The position numbers were made by a program, and so were the translations under genes. Below the pieces are notes generated by a model. The model did no database searches, was not told the origin of the DNA, and saw only the letters and a program-made list of their open reading frames with translations. Positions 32,549-48,335 of a stretch of DNA of 64,000 nucleotides are shown here, in pieces (the stretch's first letter is position 1; every line of letters starts with the position of its first letter). The stretch lies in IMG/VR virus record IMGVR_UViG_3300016482_000025, positions 1 to 64,000 of that record; one strand, given 5' to 3'. This stretch comes from a virus.

Positions 32549-32566
32549 CCAGTTTTGGAGTTTGTC

Positions 32567-32935: not shown

Positions 32936-32944
32936 TGCTATAAG
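32916..32944 (+). promoter_or_regulatory. sigma70-type promoter for the 118-nt tRNA-like RNAs
   Basis: TTGACA, 17 nt, TATAAG; the RNA 5' end (32954) lies 9 nt downstream. Confidence 0.55.
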
Positions 32945-32953
32945 GATATACAT

Positions 32954-33071: not shown

Positions 33072-33080
33072 ACAATTTTT

Positions 33081-33198: not shown

Positions 33199-33220
33199 CC
33201 ATTTTTGAAGGAATTATATT

Positions 33221-33688
33221 ATGGAAAACGCGACCAAAATTTATATTGATTATTCTTCTTATACTACCGTAACAAATTCTGCCGATCCTGATGACGAATG
33301 GGATCGTGATGATACTTCAACGGATTATTACGTTAATGGTTTAACTTTAGAACCTAACGGTTCTTTTGAGTATTGTTATTATCCAGGCGAAGTGAAGGAA
33401 GGTGATAAGATTTATCTAGTTTATGCAGTCTATTCTACTGGTGATAGTTTTCATCGTGACGAAAGAGGTTGTATTGACTTTGTTGGAGTTTACAAGGATA
33501 AGGCTACTGCCGATTTAGTGGCTCATGTTCTTGAAAAGCATTCTACAGAAGATAACATGTATGGTGAAGCCAAGTGGACAGCTAAGATTGTTCTTGACAA
33601 TGGCACCGAATATGACTATCATGTTGGATGGGTTGGTTATTTTGAACACCTTGATTACATTAGTGTTGAGGAATTTATTGTTCGATGA
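33221..33688 (+). CDS. hypothetical protein
   Basis: GAAGGAATTATATTATG initiation region; 155 aa. Confidence 0.5.
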   Translation: MENATKIYIDYSSYTTVTNSADPDDEWDRDDTSTDYYVNGLTLEPNGSFEYCYYPGEVKEGDKIYLVYAVYSTGDSFHRDERGCIDFVGVYKDKATADLVAHVLEKHSTEDNMYGEAKWTAKIVLDNGTEYDYHVGWVGYFEHLDYISVEEFIVR

Positions 33689-33876
33689 ATATCATTTGGA
33701 CCGAAGAACAAGTAAAGATGTTAAATGAACGTCAGGCACGTAATGATTTACACCCATATACGTGTCCTGGTGATCATAAAGAGTGTGAAAATAATAGAGA
33801 ATTAATTGCCACAATTTATGGATGGCGTTGTGTTTGTGGTAAATACACACAAAATTGGTCACATGAAACCAGATAA
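33685..33876 (+). CDS. small Cys-containing protein
   Basis: 63-aa ORF, ATGA overlap. Confidence 0.45.
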   Translation: MNIIWTEEQVKMLNERQARNDLHPYTCPGDHKECENNRELIATIYGWRCVCGKYTQNWSHETR

Positions 33877-34109
33877 TGATGAATATATACCATTTTGCTA
33901 TTGACATTGGACAATGGGATTGTGATAATTGGGTTGCTGTTGCTGATGATATAGAAATTGCAAAAGAAAAGGTCATTCATACTTGGAAACAAAGATATGG
34001 TGGACCAATTCAAGAAAATGTTGATAGGTTTGTCAATCAGTTAAATAATGCGTCAGTAGAGATTATTGATATTGACGGTGCCGCAAATGTGTGGCAATCT
34101 TTTGATTAA
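33876..34109 (+). CDS. hypothetical protein
   Basis: 77-aa ORF. Confidence 0.45.
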   Translation: MMNIYHFAIDIGQWDCDNWVAVADDIEIAKEKVIHTWKQRYGGPIQENVDRFVNQLNNASVEIIDIDGAANVWQSFD

Positions 34110-34110
34110 C

Positions 34111-34156
34111 GGGGAAGCCGCTAAGATGGTGGATTAGCACCGGATTTCAAAACCGC
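34111..34156 (+). pseudogene. tRNA 5' half remnant with a UCA anticodon loop
   Basis: GGGGAAG-CC-GCTA-AGATGGTGGAT-TAGC-A-CCGGA-TTTCAAA-ACCGC; no T arm or 3' acceptor strand follows; the HNH gene starts 33 nt downstream. Confidence 0.4.
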
Positions 34157-34162
34157 TTTTGT

Positions 34163-34188
34163 CTAAATACTTTAAAAAAGGTGTTTAG
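34163..34188 (+). promoter_or_regulatory. hairpin abutting the HNH start codon, with late-promoter-like CTAAATAC in its 5' arm
   Basis: CTAAATAC (34163-34170) pairs with GTGTTTAG (34181-34188); ATG at 34189. Confidence 0.4.
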
Positions 34189-34614
34189 ATGAAACAAAGA
34201 CATAACAATTTTACAGATGAAGAATTAATAGAAGCATATAATGAATTAAAACATTTGGGGAAAATAGCACATAAATTTAAGGTTCCTCATATACAAATTT
34301 GGCGTAAATGTCAAAAATTAAATTTACATTTTAAAAATGGTGGTAATAACGAAAAAATTAATCTAAATGAAATTTTAGAAGGTTTTCATGGTTATTATCC
34401 AACAAATAAATTAAGAAAACGAATAATAAAAGAAAAAATATTACCTTACGAATGTGCGAAATGTGGTATTCACAAATGGAATGGTTGTGATATAGTGCTT
34501 CAATTAGATCATATAAATGGTGAATCAACAGACCATAGGTTAGAAAATTTGAGATTGTTGTGTCCTAATTGTCATTCTCAAACTGATACATGGTGTGGAA
34601 AAAATAAGGGCTAG
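34189..34614 (+). CDS. HNH homing endonuclease
   Basis: QLDHINGESTDHRLENLRLLCPNCHSQTD; low GC; paralog of the gene at 28578-29093; last 7 nt overlap tRNA-Tyr. Confidence 0.8.
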   Translation: MKQRHNNFTDEELIEAYNELKHLGKIAHKFKVPHIQIWRKCQKLNLHFKNGGNNEKINLNEILEGFHGYYPTNKLRKRIIKEKILPYECAKCGIHKWNGCDIVLQLDHINGESTDHRLENLRLLCPNCHSQTDTWCGKNKG

Positions 34615-34690
34615 TAGTCCGTTAAAGACGCGGGAGTGACTGTAAATCACTTGCTTAATTGCTGGCGTGGCGCGATACCACGATAGCCCA
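34608..34690 (+). tRNA. tRNA-Tyr (anticodon GUA), class II, non-canonical T loop
   Basis: Acceptor GGGCTAG/ATAGCCC (6 bp plus a mismatch); anticodon arm AGTGA-CTGTAAA-TCACT; T arm CGTGG-CGCGATA-CCACG lacks TTC; CCA encoded. Confidence 0.55.
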
Positions 34691-34702
34691 CCAGTTTTTA
34701 TT

Positions 34703-34948
34703 ATGGAGATAAGAATGTCTAAGACAGAAAAGCCTGTTGTCGAGAAGCAAGCCGTAGAAGTTGATTTGAAGGTTGTGGTTGTTGAAATTTTTGATAGTAG
34801 TGGAGATAATGTAATTACATTGCGTTATCCTGTTGGAAAGAATCAAGCACCAATGGTTCCGGCGTGTGTTTCTTCTATGTTACTCTCAGATAATCCGCCT
34901 GTCATCAATATTTCTGTTGACTATGTTAAGGGAATTGAGTATATATAA
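34703..34948 (+). CDS. hypothetical protein
   Basis: ATG 34703 or 34715 directly after the tRNA-Tyr trailer. Confidence 0.45.
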   Translation: MEIRMSKTEKPVVEKQAVEVDLKVVVVEIFDSSGDNVITLRYPVGKNQAPMVPACVSSMLLSDNPPVINISVDYVKGIEYI

Positions 34949-34955
34949 GGAATGC

Positions 34956-35039
34956 GCGGGTGTAGCTCAGTGGTTTAGAGCGTCGGTCTTCCAAACCGAA
35001 GGCGAATAGGTTCCGTGGGTTCGAATCCCACCATCCGCT
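34956..35039 (+). tRNA. tRNA-Gly (anticodon UCC) with a 15-nt variable region
   Basis: Acceptor GCGGGTG/CATCCGC; D arm GCTC-AGTGGTTTA-GAGC; anticodon arm TCGGT-CTTCCAA-ACCGA; T arm GTGGG-TTCGAAT-CCCAC; CCA encoded; 84 nt. Confidence 0.7.
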
Positions 35040-35048
35040 CCATTGTTT

Positions 35049-35122
35049 GTCTCTGTAGCTCAATTGTAAAGAGCGTTGGCCTACGAAGCCGAAGGTTACA
35101 GGTTAGAGTCCTGTCAGGGACT
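35049..35122 (+). tRNA. tRNA-Arg (anticodon ACG)
   Basis: Acceptor GTCTCTG/CAGGGAC; anticodon loop CTACGAA; T arm ACAGG-TTAGAGT-CCTGT; CCA encoded. Confidence 0.8.
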
Positions 35123-35134
35123 CCATTTTATTAT

Positions 35135-35207
35135 GGCGCGTTAGATTACTGGCTAGATCGTCGGGCTTTCATCCCGAAGGAAGGGGTTCGATCTCCCCTA
35201 CGCGCTA
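35135..35207 (+). tRNA. tRNA-Glu (anticodon UUC)
   Basis: Acceptor GGCGCGT/ACGCGCT (G1-U72); anticodon arm TCGGG-CTTTCAT-CCCGA; GGTTCGATC T region; CCA encoded. Confidence 0.8.
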
Positions 35208-35226
35208 CCAGTTTTGAGGATTTATA

Positions 35227-35445
35227 ATGAGAGACATTAATCAAATGAATCATCTTGAAACGCTTTTTCATATTAATGGATTTAAAATTCATGATCGTAT
35301 GAAAAGCCCGGTCGAAGAATATGATGGTGTTATTGTTACTGCTAGATATCATAAAGCTTCACGTTCAGATTATTCGTTGATTATGCAATATTTTGGTAAA
35401 GAAAATTTTGCATTCTATGAAGGTAAAAGATTTGCTGTATGGTGA
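35227..35445 (+). CDS. hypothetical protein
   Basis: GAGGATTTATAATG initiation region; the stop overlaps the tRNA-His 5' end. Confidence 0.45.
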   Translation: MRDINQMNHLETLFHINGFKIHDRMKSPVEEYDGVIVTARYHKASRSDYSLIMQYFGKENFAFYEGKRFAVW

Positions 35446-35515
35446 GTGTAGTTTAGTTGGTTAAAACGTCGGCCTGTGACTCCGAAGACCACGGGTTCAA
35501 ATCCCGTCACCCACC
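35441..35515 (+). tRNA. tRNA-His (anticodon GUG) with encoded G-1
   Basis: G-1 opposite C73; acceptor GTGAGTG/CACCCAC (one A-C mismatch); anticodon loop CTGTGAC; T arm ACGGG-TTCAAAT-CCCGT; CCA encoded. Confidence 0.8.
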
Positions 35516-35535
35516 CCATTTGAAGGAATTATATT

Positions 35536-35838
35536 ATGTTTAAGACAATTACATCAGAACAATTAGATTTGTTTTTTGAGCAACATTGTCATAATTTTCA
35601 TGGGTATGATGGGCGCGTAATTAAGAATGCCATTACTCGTGAATTTCTTATTCCTATGACAGCCAATACCGCTGTTTATACACATAATATCCTCCATGAT
35701 TATATGTCACTTTCTCTTGTTCCTGATACTTTCTTGGAACAGATGGTTGAATACCATTGTAAGATTAAACATCTTGGTTATGATATGAAAGATAATATTT
35801 CAAATAAAAATGAAACATTGAAAGCAATTTTCACATGA
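35536..35838 (+). CDS. hypothetical protein
   Basis: GAAGGAATTATATTATG initiation region. Confidence 0.5.
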   Translation: MFKTITSEQLDLFFEQHCHNFHGYDGRVIKNAITREFLIPMTANTAVYTHNILHDYMSLSLVPDTFLEQMVEYHCKIKHLGYDMKDNISNKNETLKAIFT

Positions 35839-36086
35839 CAGAAGATTCTAGACTTGCAGAGTTATACAATAACACTATAGATGAATCGCGTATTACAGAG
35901 CTATACAAAAAGTTAAAAAGTAAAAACACAACACATTTTAGCGTGACATGGGGACCGGAAGGTGTTAAGCTTACTGAGGAAGAAAAGGCTGATTATCTTC
36001 TTAAATTGATGAATGGGATTGAGGATGGAACAATTGAACATACTATCCACGCAGACTTTCCAGAGTTACCTAGAAAGCAATCTTGA
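35835..36086 (+). CDS. hypothetical protein
   Basis: 83-aa ORF, ATGA overlap. Confidence 0.45.
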   Translation: MTEDSRLAELYNNTIDESRITELYKKLKSKNTTHFSVTWGPEGVKLTEEEKADYLLKLMNGIEDGTIEHTIHADFPELPRKQS

Positions 36087-36252
36087 TAAAGAGCTTTTTG
36101 AATTACAAGAAAATATTAAGTATGTAAGAGATTTTGGTAGTGGTCCAAAAGATAGATTTTCACCAGAATATTATGATTTTGAATTACACTACCAAGATAC
36201 AATTGTTGATATTATAACCAAATATGAAAAAATGTTTATGAGGTCGTTATGA
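36013..36252 (+). CDS. hypothetical protein (start uncertain)
   Basis: Overlaps the previous ORF by 74 nt; alternative ATG at 36025. Confidence 0.3.
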   Translation: MGLRMEQLNILSTQTFQSYLESNLDKELFELQENIKYVRDFGSGPKDRFSPEYYDFELHYQDTIVDIITKYEKMFMRSL

Positions 36253-36677
36253 TTGATAAGTTTTCTGGTGAATATCGTTGGCTATCCAATTTTGTGCCTT
36301 GTCCTGTTCTCCTAGATGGTGTAGAGTATCCTTCTGTTGAACATGCTTATCAGGCAGCCAAGACAGTTATCAAGGAAGAACGTGAAATCATTCTTCAAGC
36401 AAAGACTGCCGGTATTGCCAAGAAGCTAGGTAAGCTTGTTACAATGCGCCACAATTGGGATATGTGGAAGTGGAATATTATGTTTAATCTCTGTATGCAG
36501 AAGTTTCTAAAGGAACCATTTCGTTCTCAGCTTCTAGCTACAGGTGATCAAGAAATTATTGAAGGAAATACTTGGGGTGATACTTATTGGGGTATTTGCA
36601 ATAATATTGGGCAAAATAATCTAGGTAAGATCATCATGCATATTCGTCAAACTATTCGTGATGGTGAATATCACTGA
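36249..36677 (+). CDS. NADAR (YbiA/DUF1768) domain protein
   Basis: FSGEYRWLSNFVPCPVLLDGVEYPSVEHAYQAAKT...GNTWGDTYWG is the NADAR signature. Confidence 0.75.
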   Translation: MIDKFSGEYRWLSNFVPCPVLLDGVEYPSVEHAYQAAKTVIKEEREIILQAKTAGIAKKLGKLVTMRHNWDMWKWNIMFNLCMQKFLKEPFRSQLLATGDQEIIEGNTWGDTYWGICNNIGQNNLGKIIMHIRQTIRDGEYH

Positions 36678-36690
36678 TATATAATAAAAT

Positions 36691-36764
36691 GGGCCGGTAG
36701 CTCAGTTGGCTAGAGCGGGAGACTCTTAATCTCTAGGTCGTGGGTTCGAATCCCACCCGGCCCT
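36691..36764 (+). tRNA. tRNA-Lys (anticodon CUU)
   Basis: Acceptor GGGCCGG/CCGGCCC; anticodon loop CTCTTAA; T arm GTGGG-TTCGAAT-CCCAC; no encoded CCA. Confidence 0.85.
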
Positions 36765-36771
36765 CATAGAG

Positions 36772-36822
36772 CCTAGAAGTTATAAATAGCAATGGCAATA
36801 AGACTAATTTATAACTTCTAGG
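36772..36822 (+). promoter_or_regulatory. 16-bp perfect hairpin sequestering the endonuclease RBS, with TATAAATA in its 5' arm
   Basis: CCTAGAAGTTATAAAT (36772-36787) pairs with ATTTATAACTTCTAGG (36807-36822); TATAAATA at 36781-36788; AGGA at 36820-36823; TTG start at 36830. Confidence 0.6.
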
Positions 36823-36829
36823 ATTAATT

Positions 36830-37444
36830 TTGTATTACACAATCTATAAAATAACAAATAAAATTAACAATAAATTCTATATTGGAATGCATAAAACCAA
36901 AAATTTAAATGATGGTTATATGGGTTCTGGTAAACTCTTGAAACGTGCTATTAAAAAACACGGAATTGAAAACTTTATTAAAGAAATTCTATTCATTTTT
37001 GATAATGAACAGGATATGATTAATAAAGAAAAAGAATTAGTAGAAGTATCAGAGCAATCTTATAACCTTTGTGAAGGTGGTAAAGGTGGTTTTGGTTTTA
37101 TAAATGCTAATGGTCTTGGTGGAACACTTGGTTATAAATGGAGTGATTATTATAAAAATCATTTTAGAAAAAAAGCACAAGAACAATATGAAAAATGGAC
37201 TGATGAAGATTGGAATAATCATTCTTCACAAATAAAAAATGGAATAATAAACCGTAAACCATCATTTCTTGGTAAAAAACACACAGAAGAAACCAAACAA
37301 AAAATGAGAAAATCTAAAAATATTGGTATAAAAAATCCAAGTTTTGGTTCTATGTGGATTACTAATGGAATAGATAACAGGAAGATAAAAAAACTTGAAA
37401 CCATTCCTGATGGGTGGTATAAAGGAAGAAATAAGGGGTCTTAG
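36830..37444 (+). CDS. GIY-YIG homing endonuclease
   Basis: YYTIYKITNKINNKFYIGMHKT...GYMGSG; NUMOD3-like GKKHTEETKQKM; low GC; the last 10 nt overlap tRNA-Ala. Confidence 0.8.
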   Translation: MYYTIYKITNKINNKFYIGMHKTKNLNDGYMGSGKLLKRAIKKHGIENFIKEILFIFDNEQDMINKEKELVEVSEQSYNLCEGGKGGFGFINANGLGGTLGYKWSDYYKNHFRKKAQEQYEKWTDEDWNNHSSQIKNGIINRKPSFLGKKHTEETKQKMRKSKNIGIKNPSFGSMWITNGIDNRKIKKLETIPDGWYKGRNKGS

Positions 37445-37507
37445 CTCAGATGGGAGAGCGGTAGCTTTGCAAGCTATAGGTCATCGGTTCGATCCCGATA
37501 GGCTCCA
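37435..37507 (+). tRNA. tRNA-Ala (anticodon UGC)
   Basis: Acceptor GGGGTCT/AGGCTCC with G3-U70; anticodon loop TTTGCAA; T arm ATCGG-TTCGATC-CCGAT; CCA encoded. Confidence 0.85.
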
Positions 37508-37525
37508 CCAGTTTAGGATTATATT

Positions 37526-37753
37526 ATGAAATTTTTAATGAATGCTTATGGTAAAAAAGATTTACATGTTTTTGTTTTTCTAGAAGGTAAAAGGTATAAA
37601 AAAACTATAGGTAAATCTACTGTATATGATTATCGTGGTTTAGAAAGAATTCGCTTTACAAGAAATAGTGATAAGTCATGGAGATTGGATTTTTTTGGGC
37701 ATTGTTTAATTTGGAGTGATAAATTAAAGTATTTCAATTTAAACAAAATATAA
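37526..37753 (+). CDS. hypothetical protein
   Basis: TAGGATTATATTATG initiation region. Confidence 0.45.
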   Translation: MKFLMNAYGKKDLHVFVFLEGKRYKKTIGKSTVYDYRGLERIRFTRNSDKSWRLDFFGHCLIWSDKLKYFNLNKI

Positions 37754-37764
37754 AGGAAAAACAT

Positions 37765-37935
37765 ATGTGGTTAATCATTGTTTATATTTTAGTTAACGGT
37801 CAACCACAAATGTTTAATTATATTGAAGCGTTAGATGAAGATGAATGTCGTGAAGTAGCAGCACTTTCAAATAAAATGTTCCCTTCACGGGTTACAGTTT
37901 GTCAATTTGTTGAAGATGAAGGAACACCAATTTGA
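37765..37935 (+). CDS. small hypothetical protein (56 aa)
   Basis: AAGGAAAAACATATG. Confidence 0.35.
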   Translation: MWLIIVYILVNGQPQMFNYIEALDEDECREVAALSNKMFPSRVTVCQFVEDEGTPI

Positions 37936-38126
37936 AAAGTAAGGAAGAAATTTTAGACTTGCTTTTATCTATATGTTCTGATAATATACCTGTGAATTGG
38001 AATGATAAGACTTCAATAAAAAGTTTTAAAGAGAAATCTGATTCATACGCCAAATTCTTTAATAAACTAAATTATGAAGAGCAAGGTTGGATAACAGAAC
38101 AATTCAACAAGTTTTTAAAAGGGTAA
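37932..38126 (+). CDS. hypothetical protein
   Basis: 64-aa ORF with a TTG start overlapping the upstream stop. Confidence 0.35.
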   Translation: MKSKEEILDLLLSICSDNIPVNWNDKTSIKSFKEKSDSYAKFFNKLNYEEQGWITEQFNKFLKG

Positions 38127-38130
38127 TAAA

Positions 38131-38454
38131 ATGAATAATCCTTACGTTAAGCTTGATGATATGGAAGTGCGTGATGAAAATTGTAAGATTGCAATTACAG
38201 AGATTTACAAGGAAATTTTAAAGCTTGAATCTTCAATTGCTGCTGATGAAGAACAGCTAGAGCAATTGATTAGTGAAGTGGGTAAGGAAAAGGTTGTTTT
38301 CCTATATGGAAATTACATGGCTCAGAATTACTCTTATCTTTCTGCCATGAAGCATACATTTTACTTTTTGACTGGAATTCCTTCTTCGCGCATTCTTATT
38401 GACTTGACAGAAGAGGATAAGAAGAGTATATTCAGCTACGAGAAAGAGGAATAA
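38131..38454 (+). CDS. hypothetical protein
   Basis: 107-aa ORF. Confidence 0.45.
   Translation: MNNPYVKLDDMEVRDENCKIAITEIYKEILKLESSIAADEEQLEQLISEVGKEKVVFLYGNYMAQNYSYLSAMKHTFYFLTGIPSSRILIDLTEEDKKSIFSYEKEE
38404..38432 (+). promoter_or_regulatory. sigma70-type early promoter
   Basis: TTGACA, 17 nt, TATATT. Confidence 0.5.
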
Positions 38455-38484
38455 ATATTGACAACCAACTAAATAGGTGTCAAT

Positions 38485-38670
38485 ATGCAACCCAAGAAAC
38501 ATTTCTTTATTTCTCATTTTGGAGATAAGAGCGTCGTTCATCATACTGATGATGGTGGGCAATCGTTTAAACAACAACATTTCTATTCTAATAGAGTTTT
38601 GGATTTGAATAATTTTGCCAAGAGTCTTGAAAAGAATGGATATGAAGAAGTAAATCCTTGGTCTAGATAA
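38485..38670 (+). CDS. hypothetical protein
   Basis: 61-aa ORF downstream of promoter 38404-38432. Confidence 0.4.
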   Translation: MQPKKHFFISHFGDKSVVHHTDDGGQSFKQQHFYSNRVLDLNNFAKSLEKNGYEEVNPWSR

Positions 38671-38678
38671 AATATTAT

Positions 38679-38751
38679 CTGTGTGTAGCTCAGTTAGGAG
38701 AGTGCTGGTTTTGGAAACCAGAGGTCGTTGGGGCAGGACCAACCACGCAGA
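38679..38751 (+). tRNA. tRNA-Pro (anticodon UGG), non-canonical T loop
   Basis: Acceptor CTGTGTG/CACGCAG; anticodon arm CTGGT-TTTGGAA-ACCAG; T arm GTTGG-GGCAGGA-CCAAC lacks TTC; CCA encoded. Confidence 0.65.
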
Positions 38752-39455: not shown

Positions 39456-39483
39456 TTGACATATCCTCTTTTCGCTGTATAAT
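39456..39483 (+). promoter_or_regulatory. sigma70-type early promoter
   Basis: TTGACA, 16 nt, TATAAT. Confidence 0.6.
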
Positions 39484-39508: not shown

Positions 39509-39730
39509 ATGTATGATAGAAACGTGAATGAGGATATAAAGATGTTTAGCAAGGAAGAGATTGAAGCTTTAATCAGGGATTATATCGCTGAAAATCTATC
39601 CATTTCTGTTGAAGTATCAAGGGGTGGTTATTGGGATGATAGTCCTTCAATTAAGGTTAGTGTTTTTCTTGATGGTGAATTGGTAAGTGATTCTTCTGAT
39701 TCGCTTCCTAATCCAAAGATTTCTTATTGA
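39509..39730 (+). CDS. hypothetical protein
   Basis: Downstream of promoter 39456-39483. Confidence 0.4.
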   Translation: MYDRNVNEDIKMFSKEEIEALIRDYIAENLSISVEVSRGGYWDDSPSIKVSVFLDGELVSDSSDSLPNPKISY

Positions 39731-39747
39731 AAGGTGAATTTTATATT

Positions 39748-40818
39748 ATGACTTATTATGTGAAACACGGTAATATCTTTTCCGTAACAGATTCTCGCGC
39801 CGTTGATATTCGCGATTCTCTCCCTGCTGGTAATTACACTGTAAAGCAAAATCCAATGACCAAGGAATTCTTTCTTGAGCAGATTATGGATTTTGCTTAC
39901 AAGGGTAAGGTTTATGGTGATCTGGAAAAGAATGCCATTCGTATGTTGAATACGTATGAGGATCGTCCTAATTCTACCGGCATTCTTCTTGCTGGTGAAA
40001 AGGGTTCTGGTAAGACTATGCTTGCCCGTCTCATTGCCACCAAGGCAAATGATCGTGGTTATCCTTGCATTGTAATCAATACTGCCTTCACTGGTGATGA
40101 CTTCAACAAGTTTATTCAGACAATTGAGCAACCTACTGTAATTTTGTTTGATGAATTTGAAAAGGTCTATAAGGATGAAGATCAGGAAAAGATGCTAACT
40201 TTGCTTGATGGCGTCTATCCTGGCAAGAAGCTTTTCGTTCTAACTTGTAATGACAAGTGGCGAATTGATAAGCACATGCGTAATCGTCCTGGCCGTATTT
40301 ACTACATGCTTAACTTCAAGGGTCTAGAGGAAGATTTCATTCGCGAGTATTGCAATGATGTTCTTGTAAATAAGAATTACATTAACCAGATTTGCAATGT
40401 TTCTGCGCTGTTCTCTGAGTTTAACTTTGACATGCTTAAGGCTCTTTGTGAGGAAATGAACCGTTATGGTGAAAGTCCTGAGCAGGCTCTTAAGATGTTG
40501 AATGCAAAGCCTGAGAATGGTGAGAAGTCTCGCTATGCCATTACTCTGATTATTGAAGATCAGATGATGGAGCTTCCACACTCTGATACTTGGGAAGGCA
40601 ATCCGCTTTCTACTGGTAGCATCCGCGTAAACTATCGTAAGAAGTTTAAGGATGAAAATGGTGAGGATGATTGGGAATGGGGTGATTACAACGCTGTAAT
40701 TGGTGATCTAATCAGCATCAATCCTGAAAATCAGTCCTTTACATATGTGAATAAGGATGGTAAGCTTATCCTTACTCGCGTGAAGGAAAAGACGTGGGAT
40801 TATTCGAAGGTTCTATAA
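39748..40818 (+). CDS. AAA ATPase
   Basis: Start moved to ATG 39748 (AAAGGTGAATTTTATATTATG); Walker A AGEKGSGKT; Walker B ILFDEFE. Confidence 0.6.
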   Translation: MTYYVKHGNIFSVTDSRAVDIRDSLPAGNYTVKQNPMTKEFFLEQIMDFAYKGKVYGDLEKNAIRMLNTYEDRPNSTGILLAGEKGSGKTMLARLIATKANDRGYPCIVINTAFTGDDFNKFIQTIEQPTVILFDEFEKVYKDEDQEKMLTLLDGVYPGKKLFVLTCNDKWRIDKHMRNRPGRIYYMLNFKGLEEDFIREYCNDVLVNKNYINQICNVSALFSEFNFDMLKALCEEMNRYGESPEQALKMLNAKPENGEKSRYAITLIIEDQMMELPHSDTWEGNPLSTGSIRVNYRKKFKDENGEDDWEWGDYNAVIGDLISINPENQSFTYVNKDGKLILTRVKEKTWDYSKVL

Positions 40819-40833
40819 TATGGACATTCGAAA

Positions 40834-41571
40834 TTAGTTAGAAAGTAAAGGGATGGAAATTGCATCTTCATGTTTCCATCCCTTTCGTATTCTTGATTGA
40901 TACGTATCTTTTTTTAACCATTCGGGTAATATAATTATTTCACCATTTTTTCTTTTATAAATGTTTGGTGGTTGTTTTATATTACCAGAATTGATACGTC
41001 CTTTTTTCCAAATATTAAAATCATAATTTTGGATGTGTGATTTTAATATTTGTTTATCTATTTGACCATCGTTTATCCACATTTTAGGTAATTTATTGCG
41101 TTCTGATAAATCATTACGTTTCAACCCTAAAGTTGTTGAAACGTAACCATTTTTGAATTTATTTTTTCTGGTAATGGAAAGATTCTTTTTTTGTTCATCT
41201 GTCCACTTATTACCATAATTTGGATTTTTTTCACCAGATATATGACACGAATATGTTTTTCTAAAATAATCATATAACTTAGAATTATATCTCTGATGGT
41301 GTTTGTTCTTCATTTTAAACGAATGTAATGCAAAACACATATTTTTTATATTTTTTGAATCACTACACATTTTTGGTAGTAGAAGATGACAAATATAATG
41401 TTCTCTTGCTGTTAATAATACAAGATTTTGTTTTGAATTATTCCCACCAAGAGATTTAGGGATTATGTGGTGAGATTCATAATATTGACCATCTTTCTTA
41501 GAACGCACTTGACTCTTAGCTTTAGATATGATAGAGTAATACCACGATGAATATTTGTTTTGAAGAAACAT
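40834..41571 (-). CDS. HNH homing endonuclease (Mob-like)
   Basis: ESHHIIPKSLGGNNSKQNLVLLTAREHYICH; NUMOD-like GEKNPNYGNKWTDEQKKNLS; low GC; opposite strand to its neighbours. Confidence 0.75.
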   Translation of the reverse strand: MFLQNKYSSWYYSIISKAKSQVRSKKDGQYYESHHIIPKSLGGNNSKQNLVLLTAREHYICHLLLPKMCSDSKNIKNMCFALHSFKMKNKHHQRYNSKLYDYFRKTYSCHISGEKNPNYGNKWTDEQKKNLSITRKNKFKNGYVSTTLGLKRNDLSERNKLPKMWINDGQIDKQILKSHIQNYDFNIWKKGRINSGNIKQPPNIYKRKNGEIIILPEWLKKDTYQSRIRKGWKHEDAISIPLLSN

Positions 41572-41584: not shown

Positions 41585-42058
41585 ATGACTAGTAAAAGTA
41601 TTTATGAAAATGCTGTTTTATGTGACATTGATGGAACGGTGGCTGATTGCAGCCACCGACTCCATTGGATTAAAAACAAGCCGAAGAATTGGATGGCATT
41701 CTATGCAGGAATACCAAACGATCAACCTATTCAGCCTACAATTGATGTTGTGTGGTTGATTATGAAGAAGAATTTCTATCAACCTAGAGTGGTGTTCTGT
41801 TCTGGTCGTCCTGCTGAATATCATGATGTTACTCGTCAATGGTTTGAAAAGTATATGCCTTGGGCTAACAAGTGTCCTTTGTATATGCGTCCTACTAAGG
41901 ATAGCCGTCAGGATTACATTGTGAAGGAAGAATTGCTTGCCAAGATCAGAGAAGATGGTTATAATCCTGTTCTAGCTTTCGATGATAGGCAGCAAGTGGT
42001 TGATATGTGGCGCCGTAATGGTCTTACGTGCTTCCAAGTAGCGGAGGGCAACTTTTAG
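41585..42058 (+). CDS. polynucleotide 3'-phosphatase (stand-alone homolog of the T4 Pnk C-terminal HAD domain)
   Basis: DIDGTVAD (DxDxT) and AFDDRQQVVDMWRRNGLTCFQVAEGNF, compared with T4 Pnk [27 protein letters not shown] as I recall it. Confidence 0.8.
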   Translation: MTSKSIYENAVLCDIDGTVADCSHRLHWIKNKPKNWMAFYAGIPNDQPIQPTIDVVWLIMKKNFYQPRVVFCSGRPAEYHDVTRQWFEKYMPWANKCPLYMRPTKDSRQDYIVKEELLAKIREDGYNPVLAFDDRQQVVDMWRRNGLTCFQVAEGNF

Positions 42059-42061
42059 TTA

Positions 42062-42111
42062 AAAATCTCCTAAAGCTAAATACTATGTAAAATAATGCTT
42101 TAGGAGATTTT
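42062..42111 (+). promoter_or_regulatory. 15-bp hairpin sequestering the endonuclease RBS, with CTAAATAC at the arm/loop junction
   Basis: AAAATCTCCTAAAGC (42062-42076) pairs with GCTTTAGGAGATTTT (42097-42111); AGGAG at 42102-42106; ATG at 42114; CTAAATAC at 42076-42083. Confidence 0.55.
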
Positions 42112-42113
42112 TA

Positions 42114-42764
42114 ATGTTTTACATAGTATATAAAACTACAAATTTAATAAACCATAAAATTTATATTGGAACACATAAAACTAAAGATTTAAATGATGAT
42201 TATCTAGGATCGGGTGTTTTTTTAAAAAAAGCTATTAAAAAATATGGTAAAAACAACTTTAAAAAAGAAATAATAGCAGTATTTGACAACGCAGAAGACA
42301 TGATGAAAGAAGAAAGAAAAATAGTTAATAAAAATTTTATTCTTCGTAAAGACACATACAATTATGAATTAGGTGGTAAAGGTGGTAAGATATGGACTGA
42401 TGATTTGAGACAAAAAATGTCTGAATCAAAGAAAGGACATATACCGTGGAATAAAGGTTTAAAAACTGGAAATTTTATGACAGAAGAAGAAAAACAAAAA
42501 AGAAGTCAAAAAATGTCTGGTAAAAATAATCATATGTTTGGTATAAACGTTTCTTCTATTATCGATGAAGAAAAAGATAAAGAGCGAAGACGCAAAATTA
42601 GCGAATCGAATAAAAAACCCAAAACAAAAACAGACGGTTATAAAAAATATGCATCTAATCGTTTTTGGATAGTTGACATAGAAGGAAATTTATGTCATGC
42701 TTGTTCAGAAAATGATGAACGTCTTGTTTCAGGAAAATTTAAAAGAGGAAGAAAATGGAAGTAA
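42114..42764 (+). CDS. GIY-YIG homing endonuclease
   Basis: FYIVYKTTNLINHKIYIGTHKT...DYLGSG; NUMOD3-like repeats; low GC. Confidence 0.8.
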   Translation: MFYIVYKTTNLINHKIYIGTHKTKDLNDDYLGSGVFLKKAIKKYGKNNFKKEIIAVFDNAEDMMKEERKIVNKNFILRKDTYNYELGGKGGKIWTDDLRQKMSESKKGHIPWNKGLKTGNFMTEEEKQKRSQKMSGKNNHMFGINVSSIIDEEKDKERRRKISESNKKPKTKTDGYKKYASNRFWIVDIEGNLCHACSENDERLVSGKFKRGRKWK

Positions 42765-42789
42765 TATTAGTAGCGGAAGGGAATTTCTA

Positions 42790-43182
42790 ATGCAGAATGT
42801 TTCTATTCCCGTTCCTTATTACGTTGGATATAAGTTTTACGCTCCAAGAGTGTATGCTTCACATTCAAAGGAATATATTACAAACAACGGTTATGTTTAT
42901 TCCCGTGAGGTTGTAGAGTATATTCCTTTGATTAAATCTAAGATTATCACTGGAATTGAGATTTCTGTTAGTATGTTTGAGGAAGTATCTTATACCTTTC
43001 TTGTAAAGGATTATGATACTCTAAAGACAAGGTTGCAATTGCCTACTCATTATAAGAGTGGTTGTGTTAATTGTTTTCATGATTTTCAGTTTACAGAAAA
43101 AGAAATGGCGGAAGAATTCATCACCGAATGGATGAAGAACAACCCAAACAAGGAATATTTTGGAGGAAAACACGATGGATAA
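42790..43182 (+). CDS. hypothetical protein
   Basis: Start moved to ATG 42790 (MQNVSIPV). Confidence 0.45.
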   Translation: MQNVSIPVPYYVGYKFYAPRVYASHSKEYITNNGYVYSREVVEYIPLIKSKIITGIEISVSMFEEVSYTFLVKDYDTLKTRLQLPTHYKSGCVNCFHDFQFTEKEMAEEFITEWMKNNPNKEYFGGKHDG

Positions 43183-43597
43183 GAAGTCTGCTAAAAAGGT
43201 AAACCCCTCTGTTGAAAAGACAGTTTGGGTTATTATGCAACGTTCATATGAATATAATGATGAAACTTATGATATGCAGGAAGGTGGTAACGTTGTTGTC
43301 GCCTTTGATGATTACAATAAGGCTGTGGACGCACTAGAAGAAAAGATGATCAAGTCTGTGCGTAATGGTGAGTGCTATATGTATTATGGTTGGGAACCAT
43401 CTGCATATTTTAGTGATTCCGATGCATTCTCTGAAATGCTTGAAGGATATGGTTTTTCATTCAGTGAATTGGGGAATTATTCTTCATTCAATGAATTTGT
43501 TGAAAAGATGGAAAACGCAACAGATGATGAAATTAAGTTGTTCATTGAACATTTAAATGAACCTCTATATTATATCGAAAGCGTGAAGCTTGCATAA
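43175..43597 (+). CDS. hypothetical protein
   Basis: Start moved to ATG 43175 after GGAGG. Confidence 0.45.
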   Translation: MDKKSAKKVNPSVEKTVWVIMQRSYEYNDETYDMQEGGNVVVAFDDYNKAVDALEEKMIKSVRNGECYMYYGWEPSAYFSDSDAFSEMLEGYGFSFSELGNYSSFNEFVEKMENATDDEIKLFIEHLNEPLYYIESVKLA

Positions 43598-43607
43598 AAA
43601 AGGATAA

Positions 43608-44183
43608 CTATTTTTTATTATGAGGCTTCCATGCTTTTCTTCCTCTGATCCATCCTTCTAAAATTTTATTATGAAATTCTTCTGTTTCTGAATTATATTG
43701 TTTAGATATAGAAAAATCAGGGGAAGTAAGCCATACTAAATTTTTCTTTTTATCTCTAAGTTTTTGTCTATATTCTTCCGTTACATTAATAATACGTTTT
43801 TTATATCTTTCTTTATAAATTTCTGTATTATTAATGTAATGTTCTTTAATTGATTTTGATATTTTTTGTTTTGTTTCAGAAGATAACACAATTCCTTTTC
43901 TTAAGGAACCACCTTTACCACCTTGACATATGTTATATGTTGTTGATAAATTACAGAAGTCTTCATTGACTAATTCTTTTTCTTTATTAATCATATCTTG
44001 TTCATTATCAAATATAAACAATATTTCTTTAGTGAAATTATGAATACCATATTTTTTTATAGCACGCTTTAACATATTACCAGAACCAAGATATTCATCT
44101 TGGAGATTATTAGTCTTATGCATACCCACATAAATTTTTGAGTTGACTAAACATGTGGTTTGGTATATGGTATAATAAGTCAT
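43608..44183 (-). CDS. GIY-YIG homing endonuclease
   Basis: YYTIYQTTCLVNSKIYVGMHKT...EYLGSG; shares a near-identical block KEILFIFDNEQDMINKEKELV with the gene at 36830-37444; low GC; CTAAATAC at 44212-44219 on the minus strand. Confidence 0.8.
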   Translation of the reverse strand: MTYYTIYQTTCLVNSKIYVGMHKTNNLQDEYLGSGNMLKRAIKKYGIHNFTKEILFIFDNEQDMINKEKELVNEDFCNLSTTYNICQGGKGGSLRKGIVLSSETKQKISKSIKEHYINNTEIYKERYKKRIINVTEEYRQKLRDKKKNLVWLTSPDFSISKQYNSETEEFHNKILEGWIRGRKAWKPHNKK

Positions 44184-44239
44184 TGTTTAAACTCTGAAAA
44201 TGATTTCAGATGTATTTAGGAGTAAGTGTCATTAAGCCT

Positions 44240-44737
44240 ATGGTCCATGCGCGTATTAGCGCGAAGAAGTTTGGTGGTAAGGCAGAAGATTATCTTGCAA
44301 TCCATGATTTTATGGATTGCACAAAGATGGCTCTTCCTGATGTTCGCCATCGTATGGTTCTTCACAATTCTGTTGGTTGTTTTATTGCAGAACGTGTGTT
44401 TGGTCATACTATTGTCAATTCAGAAAACAAGACTGTTCATGTTCGTGATGTTGCCGAGGCTCATGTAATTGAAGACCTTGGTTTCATTCCTACACTTGAA
44501 AAGTGTTTTGCTGGAATGCCTATCGAAACTTGGATGGGTGGTAAGGTTTCCGCCTATAAGGAAGAGTCCAAGCCACAACCTGTTCTTCTACAGGAAGACA
44601 CTACAGCCGCTCCTACGCCTGTTCTACCACCAGTGACTACAGGAACACCGCTTGGTCCTCTTCCTACCACAATCTCTGGTGCAGATATTTTTATTGATGG
44701 TATGGCTAGCCGACTACGTAACGAAACAATTGGATAA
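44240..44737 (+). CDS. hypothetical protein
   Basis: MVHARISAKKFGGKAEDYLAIHDFMD...; Pro/Thr-rich C-terminal part; start uncertain (44210 or 44240). Confidence 0.45.
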   Translation: MVHARISAKKFGGKAEDYLAIHDFMDCTKMALPDVRHRMVLHNSVGCFIAERVFGHTIVNSENKTVHVRDVAEAHVIEDLGFIPTLEKCFAGMPIETWMGGKVSAYKEESKPQPVLLQEDTTAAPTPVLPPVTTGTPLGPLPTTISGADIFIDGMASRLRNETIG

Positions 44738-44748
44738 GGAAATATAAA

Positions 44749-45234
44749 ATGAATGAATTTACCAAGGCTTCTGAGTCTGTTGATGCTGTTATCAACGAAT
44801 ATGAAGAACTGATGAATAAGACACGTGAAATCCTCAAGGAAAAGATGAATGTTCTTTTCAAGGCTTTCTTTGATACGTATCCACAAGTGAAGACCATTTA
44901 TTGGTCACAATACACACCTTATTTTAATGATGGTGATGAATGCGTTTTCTCGGTAAATGATATTTACTTCACTACTTTTGATTGGGAAGACGTTGATTCG
45001 CCTTGGGGTGAAGATGATGGTGTAATTTCCCCGCATGGTGAGTGGAATTCAAAAAAGCGTTGTTTTGAACCTAACACCAAGGTTTCTCAATCTCTTATTA
45101 ATGACATGAAGAAGTTTTCTTCTATTCTCATGTCAGAAGCAAATGAGGCTGTGATGCTTGCCATGTTTGATAATCATGTGTGGGTTCGCGCGCATCGTGG
45201 TGGGTTTGAGGTTGATGAATATTCCCACGACTAA
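44749..45234 (+). CDS. hypothetical protein
   Basis: 161-aa ORF. Confidence 0.5.
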   Translation: MNEFTKASESVDAVINEYEELMNKTREILKEKMNVLFKAFFDTYPQVKTIYWSQYTPYFNDGDECVFSVNDIYFTTFDWEDVDSPWGEDDGVISPHGEWNSKKRCFEPNTKVSQSLINDMKKFSSILMSEANEAVMLAMFDNHVWVRAHRGGFEVDEYSHD

Positions 45235-45313
45235 TAAAACAATTTTGGTTTTCGGTAATGAGGATGCGTTTTCTACGCTCCTTGTTACCGATTTTCGAAT
45301 TAATAAAAAAAGT

Positions 45314-45655
45314 ATGCAAGGTTGGGTAATAAATGGTGCATACTGGTTCAAATGGTTTGATAATAATACAGCTATTTGTTGTGATGTAACACAAACAGAA
45401 ATTAAAGATAAAAATTCTTGGTCTGGATATAAAACAGTATTTAAACCAGATTGGAAAAATCCTGTTGGTGGTATTATTGAAAATGTTCCAAAACCAACAA
45501 TAGTTAAGATTTATTATCCCGGTTCTAGTGATTTTCATTATCAAGAAATAATAAATGAAGCTAGAAAAAAATTTCTTGACCCCATGAATTATATTCCTAT
45601 TATGAACAAGAAAGACTTGACGCCAACAGAGAGGGATGATAATATCCCTTTCTAA
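45314..45655 (+). CDS. hypothetical protein (start unresolved)
   Basis: The frame is open from 45158 but the first in-frame ATG after the upstream stop is 45314; low-GC segment. Confidence 0.3.
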   Translation: MQGWVINGAYWFKWFDNNTAICCDVTQTEIKDKNSWSGYKTVFKPDWKNPVGGIIENVPKPTIVKIYYPGSSDFHYQEIINEARKKFLDPMNYIPIMNKKDLTPTERDDNIPF

Positions 45656-45669
45656 GACGGAGTATTATC

Positions 45670-46854
45670 ATGAACTACGAATTTCCTCACATCACGCATA
45701 TTGATCAGGTTCGTGCGGCCATTGCTGGCCGTAAGGAATTCATTGAGGCAGAGCGCGATGACTACATTGTTTTCAATTACATTGTGAACATGGGTGATAC
45801 CTTTCCAGAAATTGAGACTGTTGACCATGCTATTCTACGTGAGTGTCGCGGTCTTATTTTCGATAAGGATGGTAATGTTCTGTCGCGTCGTCTTCACAAG
45901 TTTTTCAATGTAAACGAAACTTCCGAAACTCGCCTGGAAAATGTTGATCTTTCCAAGCCTCATGTTATTCTTGAAAAGCTTGACGGTTCCATGATTACTC
46001 CAATTAAGATTGGGGATCATTACCGTTGGGGAACCAAGATGGGTATTACGGAAGTTGCAATGAATGCGGAAGCGTTTGTTGCAAAGCATCCTCAATATGA
46101 GAAGTTTGCTCGCGCCTGTTACTACTGTGGTCTTACTCCTATCTTTGAGTGGTGTTCTCGTAAGAACCAAATCGTAATTGATTATCCAGAGGATCGCCTT
46201 GTTCTAATTGCAATGCGAGTGATGGAATCTGGTGAATATGTCAATTATGAGCGTCTTTGTGAAAATGGAAAGTATTATGGAATTGAGGTTGTAAAGCAAT
46301 ATCCTGGCACTGTTTCTTCAATGGAACATCTTGTGCAGGAAACTCGTGACCTTAAGGATGCAGAGGGGTGGATCATTCGTTTTGATGACGGGCATATGCT
46401 TAAGATCAAGGCTGATGATTATGTCATGATGCATCGTGCCAAGGATATGATTCGTATTGAAAAGAACGTTCTTCTGGTTGTAGCAGAGGATAAAGCGGAT
46501 GATCTTCTGCCTATTCTGAATGAGGTTGACCGGAATGACTTAATTCAATACCGCAAGGCTGTTGATCAAAGCATTGCTGAAAAGGCTGATGTTGTTGCTC
46601 ATGGTCTTATACAGGGACGGGATATGGACCGTAAGACTTTTGCGGTAACTCTTGTTCCTAACTTTGATCAGTCTATTCATTCTATTATGTTCGCTCTTTA
46701 CGATCAGCGTCACTCTAACTTTGATGATCTTGTTCTAAAGGCACGTGAATTGATTGTAGAGAAGATTCGCAAGTCTTGTGGCACTATAGTTGGTGTTAAC
46801 AAGGTTCGTTGGATCATTGGTAATGTTCGTTGGAAGGATCAGAACGATGAATGA
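45670..46854 (+). CDS. rnlA: RNA ligase 1 (T4 RnlA-like tRNA ligase)
   Basis: ECRGLIFDKDGNVLSRRLHKFFNVNE, EKLDGSM (KxDGS) and EGWIIRFDDGHMLKIKADDY parallel the T4 RnlA blocks ECRGIMF, KEDGSL and EGYV..DGSHFKIKSDWY. Confidence 0.85.
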   Translation: MNYEFPHITHIDQVRAAIAGRKEFIEAERDDYIVFNYIVNMGDTFPEIETVDHAILRECRGLIFDKDGNVLSRRLHKFFNVNETSETRLENVDLSKPHVILEKLDGSMITPIKIGDHYRWGTKMGITEVAMNAEAFVAKHPQYEKFARACYYCGLTPIFEWCSRKNQIVIDYPEDRLVLIAMRVMESGEYVNYERLCENGKYYGIEVVKQYPGTVSSMEHLVQETRDLKDAEGWIIRFDDGHMLKIKADDYVMMHRAKDMIRIEKNVLLVVAEDKADDLLPILNEVDRNDLIQYRKAVDQSIAEKADVVAHGLIQGRDMDRKTFAVTLVPNFDQSIHSIMFALYDQRHSNFDDLVLKARELIVEKIRKSCGTIVGVNKVRWIIGNVRWKDQNDE

Positions 46855-47176
46855 AGAAGATAGAAAGTGGCCTTTTGAGAGATTGGATAAAATGACAATC
46901 TCTCAAATTTACGATTTGGTTGCCACACTTGATACTGTTATTGCTGAAACCGCAAATGAATTGGGGTGTGAGGCTGATAACGAAGCAATTCTTGAAGCAA
47001 TCTATAAGCTAAAAAATAAAAAAGTAAAAGCGGAAGCTGTTGTTAAGGCTTTTGATAATGGTTATAATGCTGGATATGCAGCAGGAAAGAATGCTGGTGA
47101 GCTTTCAACCTTGACAGACATTCGTGATAAGGTTAATATGGCTATAGAAAACGCAATTCTTGATAGGGGTGGTTAA
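46847..47176 (+). CDS. hypothetical protein
   Basis: Start moved to ATG 46847 (MNEEDRK). Confidence 0.45.
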   Translation: MNEEDRKWPFERLDKMTISQIYDLVATLDTVIAETANELGCEADNEAILEAIYKLKNKKVKAEAVVKAFDNGYNAGYAAGKNAGELSTLTDIRDKVNMAIENAILDRGG

Positions 47177-47670
47177 TGAGTAATCCTGTTGTTTTTATGC
47201 TTATTGGGGTTCCTGGCTCTGGTAAGTCCACGTATGCAAAGCAATTTCTTGAATTGTATCCTAACTTTGTTTACATTTCCACGGATCATTATGTTCAGAA
47301 GTATGCATACGAGAATGCTACTACGTATGATGCTGTCTGGTCTAACATGATCGGTGAAGCTGAAACTTTCATGAATACTCTTCTGGAAGAGTCCATTCGT
47401 GATGGTAAGAATATCATTTGGGATCAAACTAATCTTTCCGTGAAGAACCGTGCCAAGAAGCTTTCCAAGTTTCCTGACAATTACAGGAAGGTTGCTGTTT
47501 TCTTTGAGGTTCCTTCTAAGGAAAACCACAAGTTTTTTCTTTATTCTTCGGAACGTGCTGGTAAGAATATTCCTGAGAATGTGGTTGAAAATATGATCAA
47601 TTCCATTCAGCGTCCTACACGCGAAGAAGGTTTTGATGATATCTTCACCTATTCAATTGAAAATAAATAA
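47176..47670 (+). CDS. polynucleotide 5'-kinase (stand-alone homolog of the T4 Pnk N-terminal domain)
   Basis: P-loop LIGVPGSGKSTYAKQF; later IWDQTNLSVKNR, compared with T4 IISDTNLNPERR as I recall it; 164 aa with no phosphatase domain. Confidence 0.65.
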   Translation: MSNPVVFMLIGVPGSGKSTYAKQFLELYPNFVYISTDHYVQKYAYENATTYDAVWSNMIGEAETFMNTLLEESIRDGKNIIWDQTNLSVKNRAKKLSKFPDNYRKVAVFFEVPSKENHKFFLYSSERAGKNIPENVVENMINSIQRPTREEGFDDIFTYSIENK

Positions 47671-48012: not shown

Positions 48013-48335
48013 GTCTTAACTTTGAGTCCTCGTAACTTTGGTGAGACATACAACCAAGTTGTTTCTCTTCTCTCTTTTTCAACCGGACAGTTTTCGTTAT
48101 GGTATTTGTCTATCTTTAGTTTTTGAGACGTAAATCCACAATAGATACAGGTTGCTTTTACACCAAAATTATTGAGTCCTTCGGCTACGCGGCGTTGTTG
48201 CGTGGCCTTTCTTTTTTCATTCTCTTCTGGTTTACGCACGTATAATCCACGCCAATTAGGACGATTCTTTATTTCCTCTTGACGTTTCCTGTCTTCGGCT
48301 ACCGCTTGTTTAAGTTGTTCTATTGATTTGACCAT
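48009..48335 (-). pseudogene. probable remnant of a Seg-like homing endonuclease (C-terminal zinc-finger part only)
   Basis: TCIYCGFTSQKLKIDKYHNENCP resembles CPHCNKIGSGTNMRRYHFDKC of the gene at 20566-21222; no GIY-YIG core; only minus-strand ORF in this stretch. Confidence 0.35.

Follow-up and report, generated by a model that had tools for sequence, protein, structure and literature searches.

The textbook example of how phages overcome anticodon-nuclease defences is the repair of cut tRNA, which is known biochemically almost entirely from T4 Pnkp (PseT), a homotetramer of a fused kinase–phosphatase that is paired with the RNA ligase Rnl1 (RnlA). A second group of end-healing enzymes, the HD-Pnk proteins, has been described from RM378, Deinococcus and Runella (PMC1997131, PMC6097658). 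The HD-Pnk proteins of RM378, Runella slithyformis and Deinococcus radiodurans combine an N-terminal HD phosphoesterase with a C-terminal 5'-kinase; HD-kinase genes of Campylobacter phages are linked to Rnl1, and that of Runella to an adjacent ligase-like gene. A comparison of jumbo phages described the HAD phosphatase of the polynucleotide kinase (PNK) type as 'usually fused' to a kinase, and noted that ATP-grasp RNA ligases come with kinases and phosphoesterases (PMC7824862). Here we analysed a stretch of 64,000 nucleotides (the window), which comprises positions 1 to 64,000 of the IMG/VR virus record IMGVR_UViG_3300016482_000025 and in which a HAD phosphatase, an Rnl1-type ligase and a P-loop kinase are encoded by three separate genes, with homing endonuclease genes around the first of them. 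We consider it probable that this block encodes an RNA heal-and-seal pathway as three proteins, that its kinase is not a fragment of a T4-type Pnk, that the split was inherited and that the endonucleases inserted later.

The window covers the first 64 kb of a complete, 162,015-bp record with terminal repeats, which comes from an uncultured T4-like phage. The open reading frames (ORFs) on which an earlier, sequence-only reading of this DNA was built are all present. That reading placed a 3'-phosphatase gene and a P-loop kinase gene about 5 kb apart with an RnlA-type ligase gene between them, and this layout holds: the two healing genes match PF25109 and PF13671, the phosphatase stop codon and the kinase start are separated by 5.1 kb, and the order is phosphatase...ligase...kinase (P...L...K). 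Over the whole genome there was one match to HAD_PNKP and one full match to AAA_33, located in different ORFs, and the genome therefore encodes no fused Pnk. No second Pnk-like gene, no HD-domain protein and no cREC domain was found in the 162,015-bp genome. The locus thus resembles T4 in its enzyme families (a PF25109 phosphatase, an Rnl1 family ligase with nucleotidyl-transferase motifs and a kinase with the P-loop fold), but unlike in T4-type bifunctional Pnkp the kinase and the phosphatase are not one polypeptide.

The first healing gene (41585..42058, + strand) encodes a predicted stand-alone polynucleotide 2',3'/3'-phosphatase of the HAD (DxDxT) type of 157 amino acids (aa). A profile search of both healing ORFs against Pnk domains, which the sequence-only reading had proposed as a check, matched it to HAD_PNKP (PF25109) with an E value of 1.6e-34 and 119.5 bits (cut-off 27.6), covering positions 2-143 of the 143 in the profile. 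Its best solved-structure matches are the phosphatase domain of T4 Pnk and Pnkp1 (E ~1e-14). The protein has the DIDGT motif and the C-terminal motif that had been quoted for it, and its residues D14, D16, T18, R25 and S73 align with T4 D165, D167, T169, R176 and S211, while R75, D110, K114, D133 and D134 align with T4 R213, D254, K258, D277 and D278. All the T4 phosphatase residues that were checked are kept, including D14, D16, S73, K114 and D134; in T4, D165, D167, S211, K258 and D278 have described roles as Asp nucleophile, Asp acid-base and phosphate/Mg2+ ligands (PMC3592404).

The sealing gene (45670..46854, + strand) encodes an ATP-dependent RNA ligase of 394 aa of the Rnl1 type (T4 RnlA family), which matches RNA_lig_T4_1 (PF09511) with E 3.9e-31 and 109 bits (cut-off 28.3) and the structures of T4 Rnl1 with E 3e-24. 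The motif I lysine K103 (KLDG), motif IV (EGW, 232-234) and motif V (KIK, 245-247) are aligned. The match to TIGR02308 (E 7.7e-37) scores 127 against an NCBIfam equivalog cut-off of 242, and the protein is therefore a member of the Rnl1 family and not a close orthologue. In T4 Rnl1, tRNA specificity is conferred by a C-terminal domain (PF20819), and to this profile the window ligase has a weak match with E 0.0058 and 17.4 bits, below the cut-off of 27.

The second healing gene (47176..47670, + strand) encodes a candidate stand-alone P-loop 5'-OH polynucleotide kinase of 164 aa, which matched AAA_33 (PF13671) with E 3e-19 in the same profile search. Its best sequence matches among solved structures are Pnkp1 (1.8e-8) and the kinase domain of T4 Pnk (7.7e-7), and bacterial Pnkp ranks first in NCBIfam. 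Matches to adenylate and guanylate kinases are weak and mostly confined to the P-loop. In BLASTP searches the protein is 27% identical to the kinase domain of RM378 PNK (E 7e-11), its closest characterised relative, and 37% identical to a Campylobacter HD-kinase (E 5e-24). The top PHROG match is to the C-terminal half of phrog_6931, a family that takes in proteins of Campylobacter phages whose annotation likens them to the RM378 'polyA polymerase' and in which an HD domain is followed by an AAA_33 kinase. Unlike HD-Pnk, the window ORF is kinase-only and lacks an HD domain, and a separate T4-type HAD phosphatase is predicted to supply 3' healing.

The kinase-domain tree places the window kinase within a clade of 19 stand-alone kinases with a support of 97 in the Shimodaira–Hasegawa-like approximate likelihood ratio test (SH-aLRT). 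This clade joins three HD-kinase fusions (RM378, Campylobacter) and one kinase–phosphatase (K-P) fusion, P0240, with SH-aLRT 96, and both the kinase domains of T4-type K-P proteins and the group with the reverse order (P-K) lie apart from it. The window kinase, which is only about 25% identical to that of T4, groups away from the T4-type kinase domains, and it is therefore no piece of a T4-type Pnk. Fusions of AAA_33 kinases to HAD_PNKP are known in both domain orders, and P0240 joins a kinase that is 32% identical to that of the window with a HAD phosphatase. A search for longer, fused forms of the kinase gave two weak matches only, which the search itself flags as weak evidence. In one locus (L095, 7009-7592) the kinase homologue is divided over two adjacent frames, possibly by a frameshift or a sequencing error. 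The AlphaFold2 model of the window kinase has a predicted local distance difference test score (pLDDT) of 93, and the fold search with it was led by polynucleotide kinases, with matches to mammalian PNKP, CthPnk (template modelling score, TM, of 0.73), T4 Pnk, Pnkp1 and the kinase of the fungal tRNA ligase Trl1.

The split layout is ancestral and common in environmental phages. Among cultured phages, the closest healing genes are found in the ~147-kb roseobacter and Rhodobacter phages DSS3P8, vB_RpoS-V10, MD18, DSS3_MAL1, RcXuper and RpAliso, whose phosphatases are 41-50% and kinases 36-46% identical to those of the window. The three loci inspected (DSS3P8, RcXuper and DSS3_MAL1) have the same order of a stand-alone phosphatase, Rnl1 and kinase. 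In these loci the phosphatase is followed by a few small genes, a cell-wall hydrolase gene, Rnl1 and a kinase gene that overlaps the ligase gene, and no endonuclease is annotated. They differ from the window in their hosts, which are other and G+C-rich, in the hydrolase gene before the ligase and in the direct overlap of kinase and ligase genes without the ORF of 109 aa that lies between these two genes in the window. In the annotation of RcXuper, both healing genes are labelled 'polynucleotide kinase'.

Relatives of the kinase occur in at least 503 viral stretches, of which 80 kinase-anchored loci were fetched. Linkage was counted over a distance of 10 kb in the 50 of these loci that have at least 5 kb on either side: Rnl1 was found in 25 and the phosphatase in 17, always on the same strand (both in 15, Rnl1 only in 10, phosphatase only in 2, neither in 23). 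Where all three genes are present in the 80 kinase-anchored loci, the order is L-K-P (12 loci), P-K-L (4), P-L-K (4) or K-P-L (1), and in many phages the kinase gene overlaps or abuts the ligase gene. Anchoring on the ligase instead, 80 viral loci contained a stand-alone kinase in 55 and a stand-alone phosphatase in 26 cases. A fused kinase–phosphatase ORF was found in 0 of the 80 ligase-anchored and 0 of the 80 kinase-anchored viral loci, although the fused genes of phages nt-1, MP1 and Beuffert, which served as positive controls, were all three detected. Short forms also dominate among the 150 nearest cluster representatives of the phosphatase, since 107 of them have at most 175 aa, 19 have 176-250 aa and only 24 are longer; the longer ones comprise 18 of the reverse P-K order and six of the T4-type K-P order. 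The conclusion that the split is ancestral follows from the order kept in the roseobacter phages, the lack of fused genes in 160 loci, the short phosphatase relatives and the separate kinase clade. In the literature searched, which did not include the most relevant survey (Burroughs & Aravind 2016), we found no description or biochemistry of a split pair of an RM378-type kinase and a T4-type HAD phosphatase.

Other arrangements of the phosphatase were seen as well. The proteins P0126, P0137, P0138, P0147, P0216 and P0233 are mostly 300-340 aa long and consist of an N-terminal HAD_PNKP and a C-terminal AAA_33 kinase, which is the order of mammalian PNKP; the kinase domains of such P-K proteins form a clade of their own (SH-aLRT 100). 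The cultured Kyanoviridae phage vB_OspM_OC of Ochrobactrum (L176, 7900-8882) encodes a stand-alone HAD phosphatase, then cREC, a receiver domain that processes cyclic phosphates (PF20274, E 5e-22), and then Rnl1, which is another split end-healing arrangement.

By homology with T4 Pnkp and Rnl1, the pathway would start with a nuclease that cuts RNA, most plausibly in the anticodon loop of a tRNA, and leaves a 2',3'-cyclic phosphate and a 5'-OH. The HAD phosphatase would then remove the cyclic or 3' phosphate via an aspartyl-phosphate on D14, with D16 as general acid-base. The P-loop kinase would hold a nucleoside triphosphate (NTP) by K17 and R127 and move its gamma phosphate to the 5'-OH, D37 acting as general base. 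The Rnl1 ligase, adenylylated on K103, would finally seal the break. The layout would be a mix-and-match one, in which a T4-type HAD phosphatase works with an RM378-type kinase, and the stand-alone kinase belongs to an old, widespread clade related to the kinase domains of HD-Pnk proteins such as RM378 PNK. Homology and gene linkage lend good support to the heal-and-seal reading, and a role of the predicted enzymes in counter-defence is suggested by their T4 homologues. The sequence-only reading had likewise proposed a complete heal-and-seal set; the part that stands is the presence of three homologues of the T4 healing and sealing activities, but the kinase tree indicates that they are not a broken T4 Pnk.

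Several points weigh against the reading as an inherited three-protein pathway. Firstly, the phosphatase-domain tree has good support for only four of its 70 inner branches and mixes the architectures, and the direction of fusion or fission is therefore not readable for the HAD domain; the nearest neighbours of the window phosphatase in this tree are all stand-alone proteins. Secondly, the lack of endonucleases in the blocks of DSS3P8, RcXuper and DSS3_MAL1 rests on GenBank annotation. Thirdly, the gene block at ~39.5-48.2 kb is bracketed by a candidate promoter (39456..39483, + strand), which matches the sigma-70-type consensus TTGACA-16-TATAAT at 12 of 12 positions, and a candidate intrinsic terminator (48183..48207, + strand), a hairpin with an 11-bp stem with seven G-C pairs followed by a T run that would close the block, but both are consensus or pattern matches only. 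The further points against it concern the substrate of the kinase and are taken up with the alternatives below.

The three proteins could be real end-healing and end-sealing enzymes that do another job, acting on other RNAs, on the phage's own tRNAs or tRNA-like RNAs, or on DNA ends. T4 Pnkp and RM378 PNK act on DNA ends too (PMC2831316, PMC1997131). Like T4, the window phage also has Rnl2 as a second RNA ligase (19326..19850, + strand; PF09414, E 7.7e-30). It is T4-like in its capsid protein Gp23 (PF07068, E 1.5e-154) as well, and its closest cultured capsids are those of Stenotrophomonas phage DLP6 (74%), the Melnitz phages of Methylophilales, Sinorhizobium phages phiM12 and phiN3 and Pelagibacter phage HTVC008M. 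Megablast against phages gave no close relative of the window phage, and a scan of viral contigs with the kinase protein gave none either, the best homologues being ~50-57% identical. HAD_PNKP was found in none of the five nearest cultured relatives by capsid, and kinase and Rnl1 together occur in only two of them, phiN3 and Cr30. The nearest capsid relatives thus mostly lack the set, which is therefore dispensable. In phiN3 a metallophosphoesterase, identified by a weak match, is encoded close to the kinase. The repair set is an accessory module with a patchy distribution, and kinases of this clade are paired with more than one kind of phosphoesterase. Such a distribution is, however, typical of counter-defence genes, and the only established in vivo role of T4 Pnkp and Rnl1 is the repair of tRNA cut by PrrC (PMC3592404, PMC2610378). 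Moreover, the repair genes adjoin a cluster of 14 tRNA genes upstream of them (28510..38751, + strand). The sequence-only reading had spoken of at least 16 tRNAs, a number that was not reached, as ARAGORN found 13 and Rfam one more (38679-38751). The two finders disagree on single genes: ARAGORN misses the one at 38679-38751, and its tRNA-Tyr at 34608-34693 is absent from the Rfam list at the gathering threshold. On balance we regard a different job of the enzymes as unlikely.

An unlikely alternative is that the 164-aa P-loop protein is a small-molecule or protein kinase (zeta-toxin-like, nucleotide or of a nicotinamide adenine dinucleotide, NAD, pathway), in which case 5' healing would be done by another activity, or Rnl1 and the phosphatase would be used otherwise. 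The protein also matches Zeta_toxin (PF06414, E 3e-9), and its model matches the folds of zeta toxins (TM 0.76) and PSTK. As the fold is common to these proteins, it is not decisive for the substrate, which we infer for the window protein from relatives and gene linkage. The roseobacter phages have NAD-salvage genes a few genes further downstream, and with neither ligase nor phosphatase near 23 of the 50 well-flanked kinases, the kinase clade is not strictly tied to them. Six residues are essential in the T4 kinase: Lys15, Ser16, Asp35, Arg38, Asp85 and Arg126 (PMC2831316). Five of these are present in the window kinase (K17, S18, D37, D83 and R127, corresponding to T4 K15, S16, D35, D85 and R126), but the sixth, Arg38, is replaced by Val40, which together with the low identity and the different clade sets this kinase apart from that of T4. 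The position equivalent to Arg38 is hydrophobic in all 29 aligned members of the kinase family, and the HD-Pnk relatives share this trait, with Met in RM378 PNK and Leu in the Campylobacter homologue. RM378 PNK has demonstrated 5'-kinase activity (Blondal et al. 2005, as cited in PMC1997131), and mammalian PNKP has no counterpart of Arg38 either, a lack to which its requirement for longer acceptors is ascribed (PMC2831316). The missing Arg38 is not disqualifying. Further evidence against a different kinase is that the best PDB and NCBIfam sequence matches are all polynucleotide kinases, that the nearest characterised relative is the kinase-active RM378 PNK, that the gene overlaps or abuts the ligase gene in many phages, and that such kinases are known in fusions with HAD_PNKP and with HD phosphoesterases. 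A 5'-OH polynucleotide kinase is what its relatives, its fold and its gene linkage suggest.

The remaining question is that of the endonucleases. As the sequence-only reading had noted, three predicted homing endonuclease genes lie around the phosphatase gene, one matching phrog_655 (HNH) and two matching phrog_314 (GIY-YIG). The HNH endonuclease gene (40834..41571, - strand; phrog_655, E 1.4e-38; HNH PF01844, E 4.6e-5; NUMOD3) fills the gap between an AAA ATPase gene and the phosphatase gene on the opposite strand. The first GIY-YIG (Seg-like) gene (42114..42764, + strand; phrog_314, E 1.8e-37; NUMOD3; SegE_GIY-YIG) starts 55 nt past the phosphatase stop codon. The second GIY-YIG (Seg-like) gene is an intergenic insertion (43608..44183, - strand; phrog_314, E 3.2e-36). 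The Pfam catalytic-domain scores of the three are near or below the cut-offs, with HNH passing. The leader of the first GIY-YIG gene contains a perfect 19-bp hairpin (42058..42115, + strand; -24.1 kcal/mol, z -8.1) that buries its GGAG ribosome-binding site, and none of 200 shuffled sequences folds as well. In this gene the combination of GIY-YIG and NUMOD3, the intergenic position beside a conserved gene and the ribosome-binding site hidden by a hairpin are as in the seg-type GIY-YIG endonucleases of T4, for example segB. Its closest relative among the fetched loci is the Seg-like gene behind the fused pseT of Morganella phage MP1 (39% identity, E 3e-44), which has the same position and a similar spacing (~56 nt), and the sequence similarity extends beyond the stop codon; the second GIY-YIG protein is 54% identical to the same MP1 gene. 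A pattern search for the junction of phosphatase and GIY-YIG genes found it only in MP1, and the idea that this junction is a widespread homing cassette was dropped.

The genes on either side of the second GIY-YIG gene, an ORF of 145 aa and a DUF6915 gene, are directly adjacent in the syntenic loci L057 and L059, i.e. the site is empty there. In a further locus (L115) endonuclease genes stand on either side of a stand-alone phosphatase gene, in the order HNH(-)-phosphatase-GIY(-). From the adjacency in L057, the MP1 gene behind a fused pseT and the hairpin over the ribosome-binding site, the endonucleases look like secondary, selfish elements that inserted later. They tend to insert beside the conserved phosphatase gene, whether it is fused or not, and seem to follow this gene and not to have created the split. 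That an ancestral T4-type bifunctional pseT was split by insertion of a homing endonuclease, or by a rearrangement that it induced, as the sequence-only reading had suggested, is largely refuted and very improbable: the three endonuclease genes around the phosphatase, the similarly flanked phosphatase of L115, the Seg-like gene next to pseT in MP1 and a phosphatase tree compatible with several fission events speak for it, but the kinase belongs to a clade other than that of the T4-type kinase domains, phages with no annotated endonuclease have the split order too, none of the 160 related loci has a fused gene, in MP1 an endonuclease gene of this type follows a fused gene that is intact, the site of the second GIY-YIG gene is empty in L057, and P...L...K is the reverse of the T4 K-P domain order, which an insertion therefore could not have produced.

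Combining these observations, we tentatively suggest that Rnl1 and stand-alone versions of an RM378-type kinase and a T4-type HAD phosphatase may together make up an RNA-repair cassette of phages that is distinct, widespread and as yet biochemically uncharacterised, with L-K-P as its compact order. Since the Arg38 contact is missing from its kinase, this enzyme may depend on longer or structured acceptors, as mammalian PNKP does, which could make it tRNA-selective. The enzymes may also form a complex, and Seg-type endonucleases that home beside the 3' end of the phosphatase gene may shuttle the phosphatase module between fused and split contexts. This proposal as a whole is possible, but we hold it with little confidence.

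Several other genes of the block were examined. An ORF of 109 aa (46847..47176, + strand) lies between the ligase and kinase genes and is translationally coupled to both: the stop codon of the ligase overlaps its ATG (ATGAATGA), and its own stop codon overlaps the ATG of the kinase (TAATG). It has no family match, and no homologue was found in ~180 related loci; L057 has two unrelated small ORFs at this place. Upstream of the ligase gene lie two conserved neighbours (44210..45234, + strand), the DUF6915 gene (PF21866, E 1.2e-38) and a gene for a protein of 161 aa (phrog_9564). The pair is syntenic in L057 and L059 and also occurs close to the kinase gene of Sinorhizobium phage phiN3 (loci compared: L057, 6429-7778; L008, 4748-5785). 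Between the window and L057 or L059, the DUF6915 proteins share 87% identity, and the adjoining genes are just 34-51% identical.

The AAA ATPase gene (39727..40818, + strand; PF00004, E 3.9e-13; phrog_2376, E 4e-95) is the neighbour of the phosphatase gene beyond the HNH endonuclease gene. It stands beside the kinase, ligase or phosphatase gene in seven loci, a sample that is biased. In loci anchored on the ATPase itself, a ligase, kinase or phosphatase gene was found in three of 22 and tRNAs in five of 22, and a role of the ATPase as a regular fourth repair component is unsupported. Homologues of the ATPase (phrog_2376) are located inside a tRNA array near RtcB in Pumpernickel, directly upstream of an RNA ligase in Mel-JY01, and near the stand-alone HAD phosphatase, cREC and Rnl1 in Ochrobactrum phage OC.

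The split set is a mix-and-match variant of a known repair system and of modest interest. The understanding of the pathway is unchanged, and the idea that selfish endonucleases split the gene is unsupported. Many environmental and some cultured phages use a three-protein version, in which a T4-type phosphatase is combined with a kinase of the RM378/HD-Pnk lineage. This also matters for annotation, as labels such as 'ATPase', 'zeta toxin', 'polyA polymerase' and 'hypothetical' are common for the kinase, and the name 'polynucleotide kinase' is often given to the stand-alone phosphatase. Lastly, the set offers new end-healing enzymes, and its small kinase without Arg38 may differ from that of T4 in acceptor preference.

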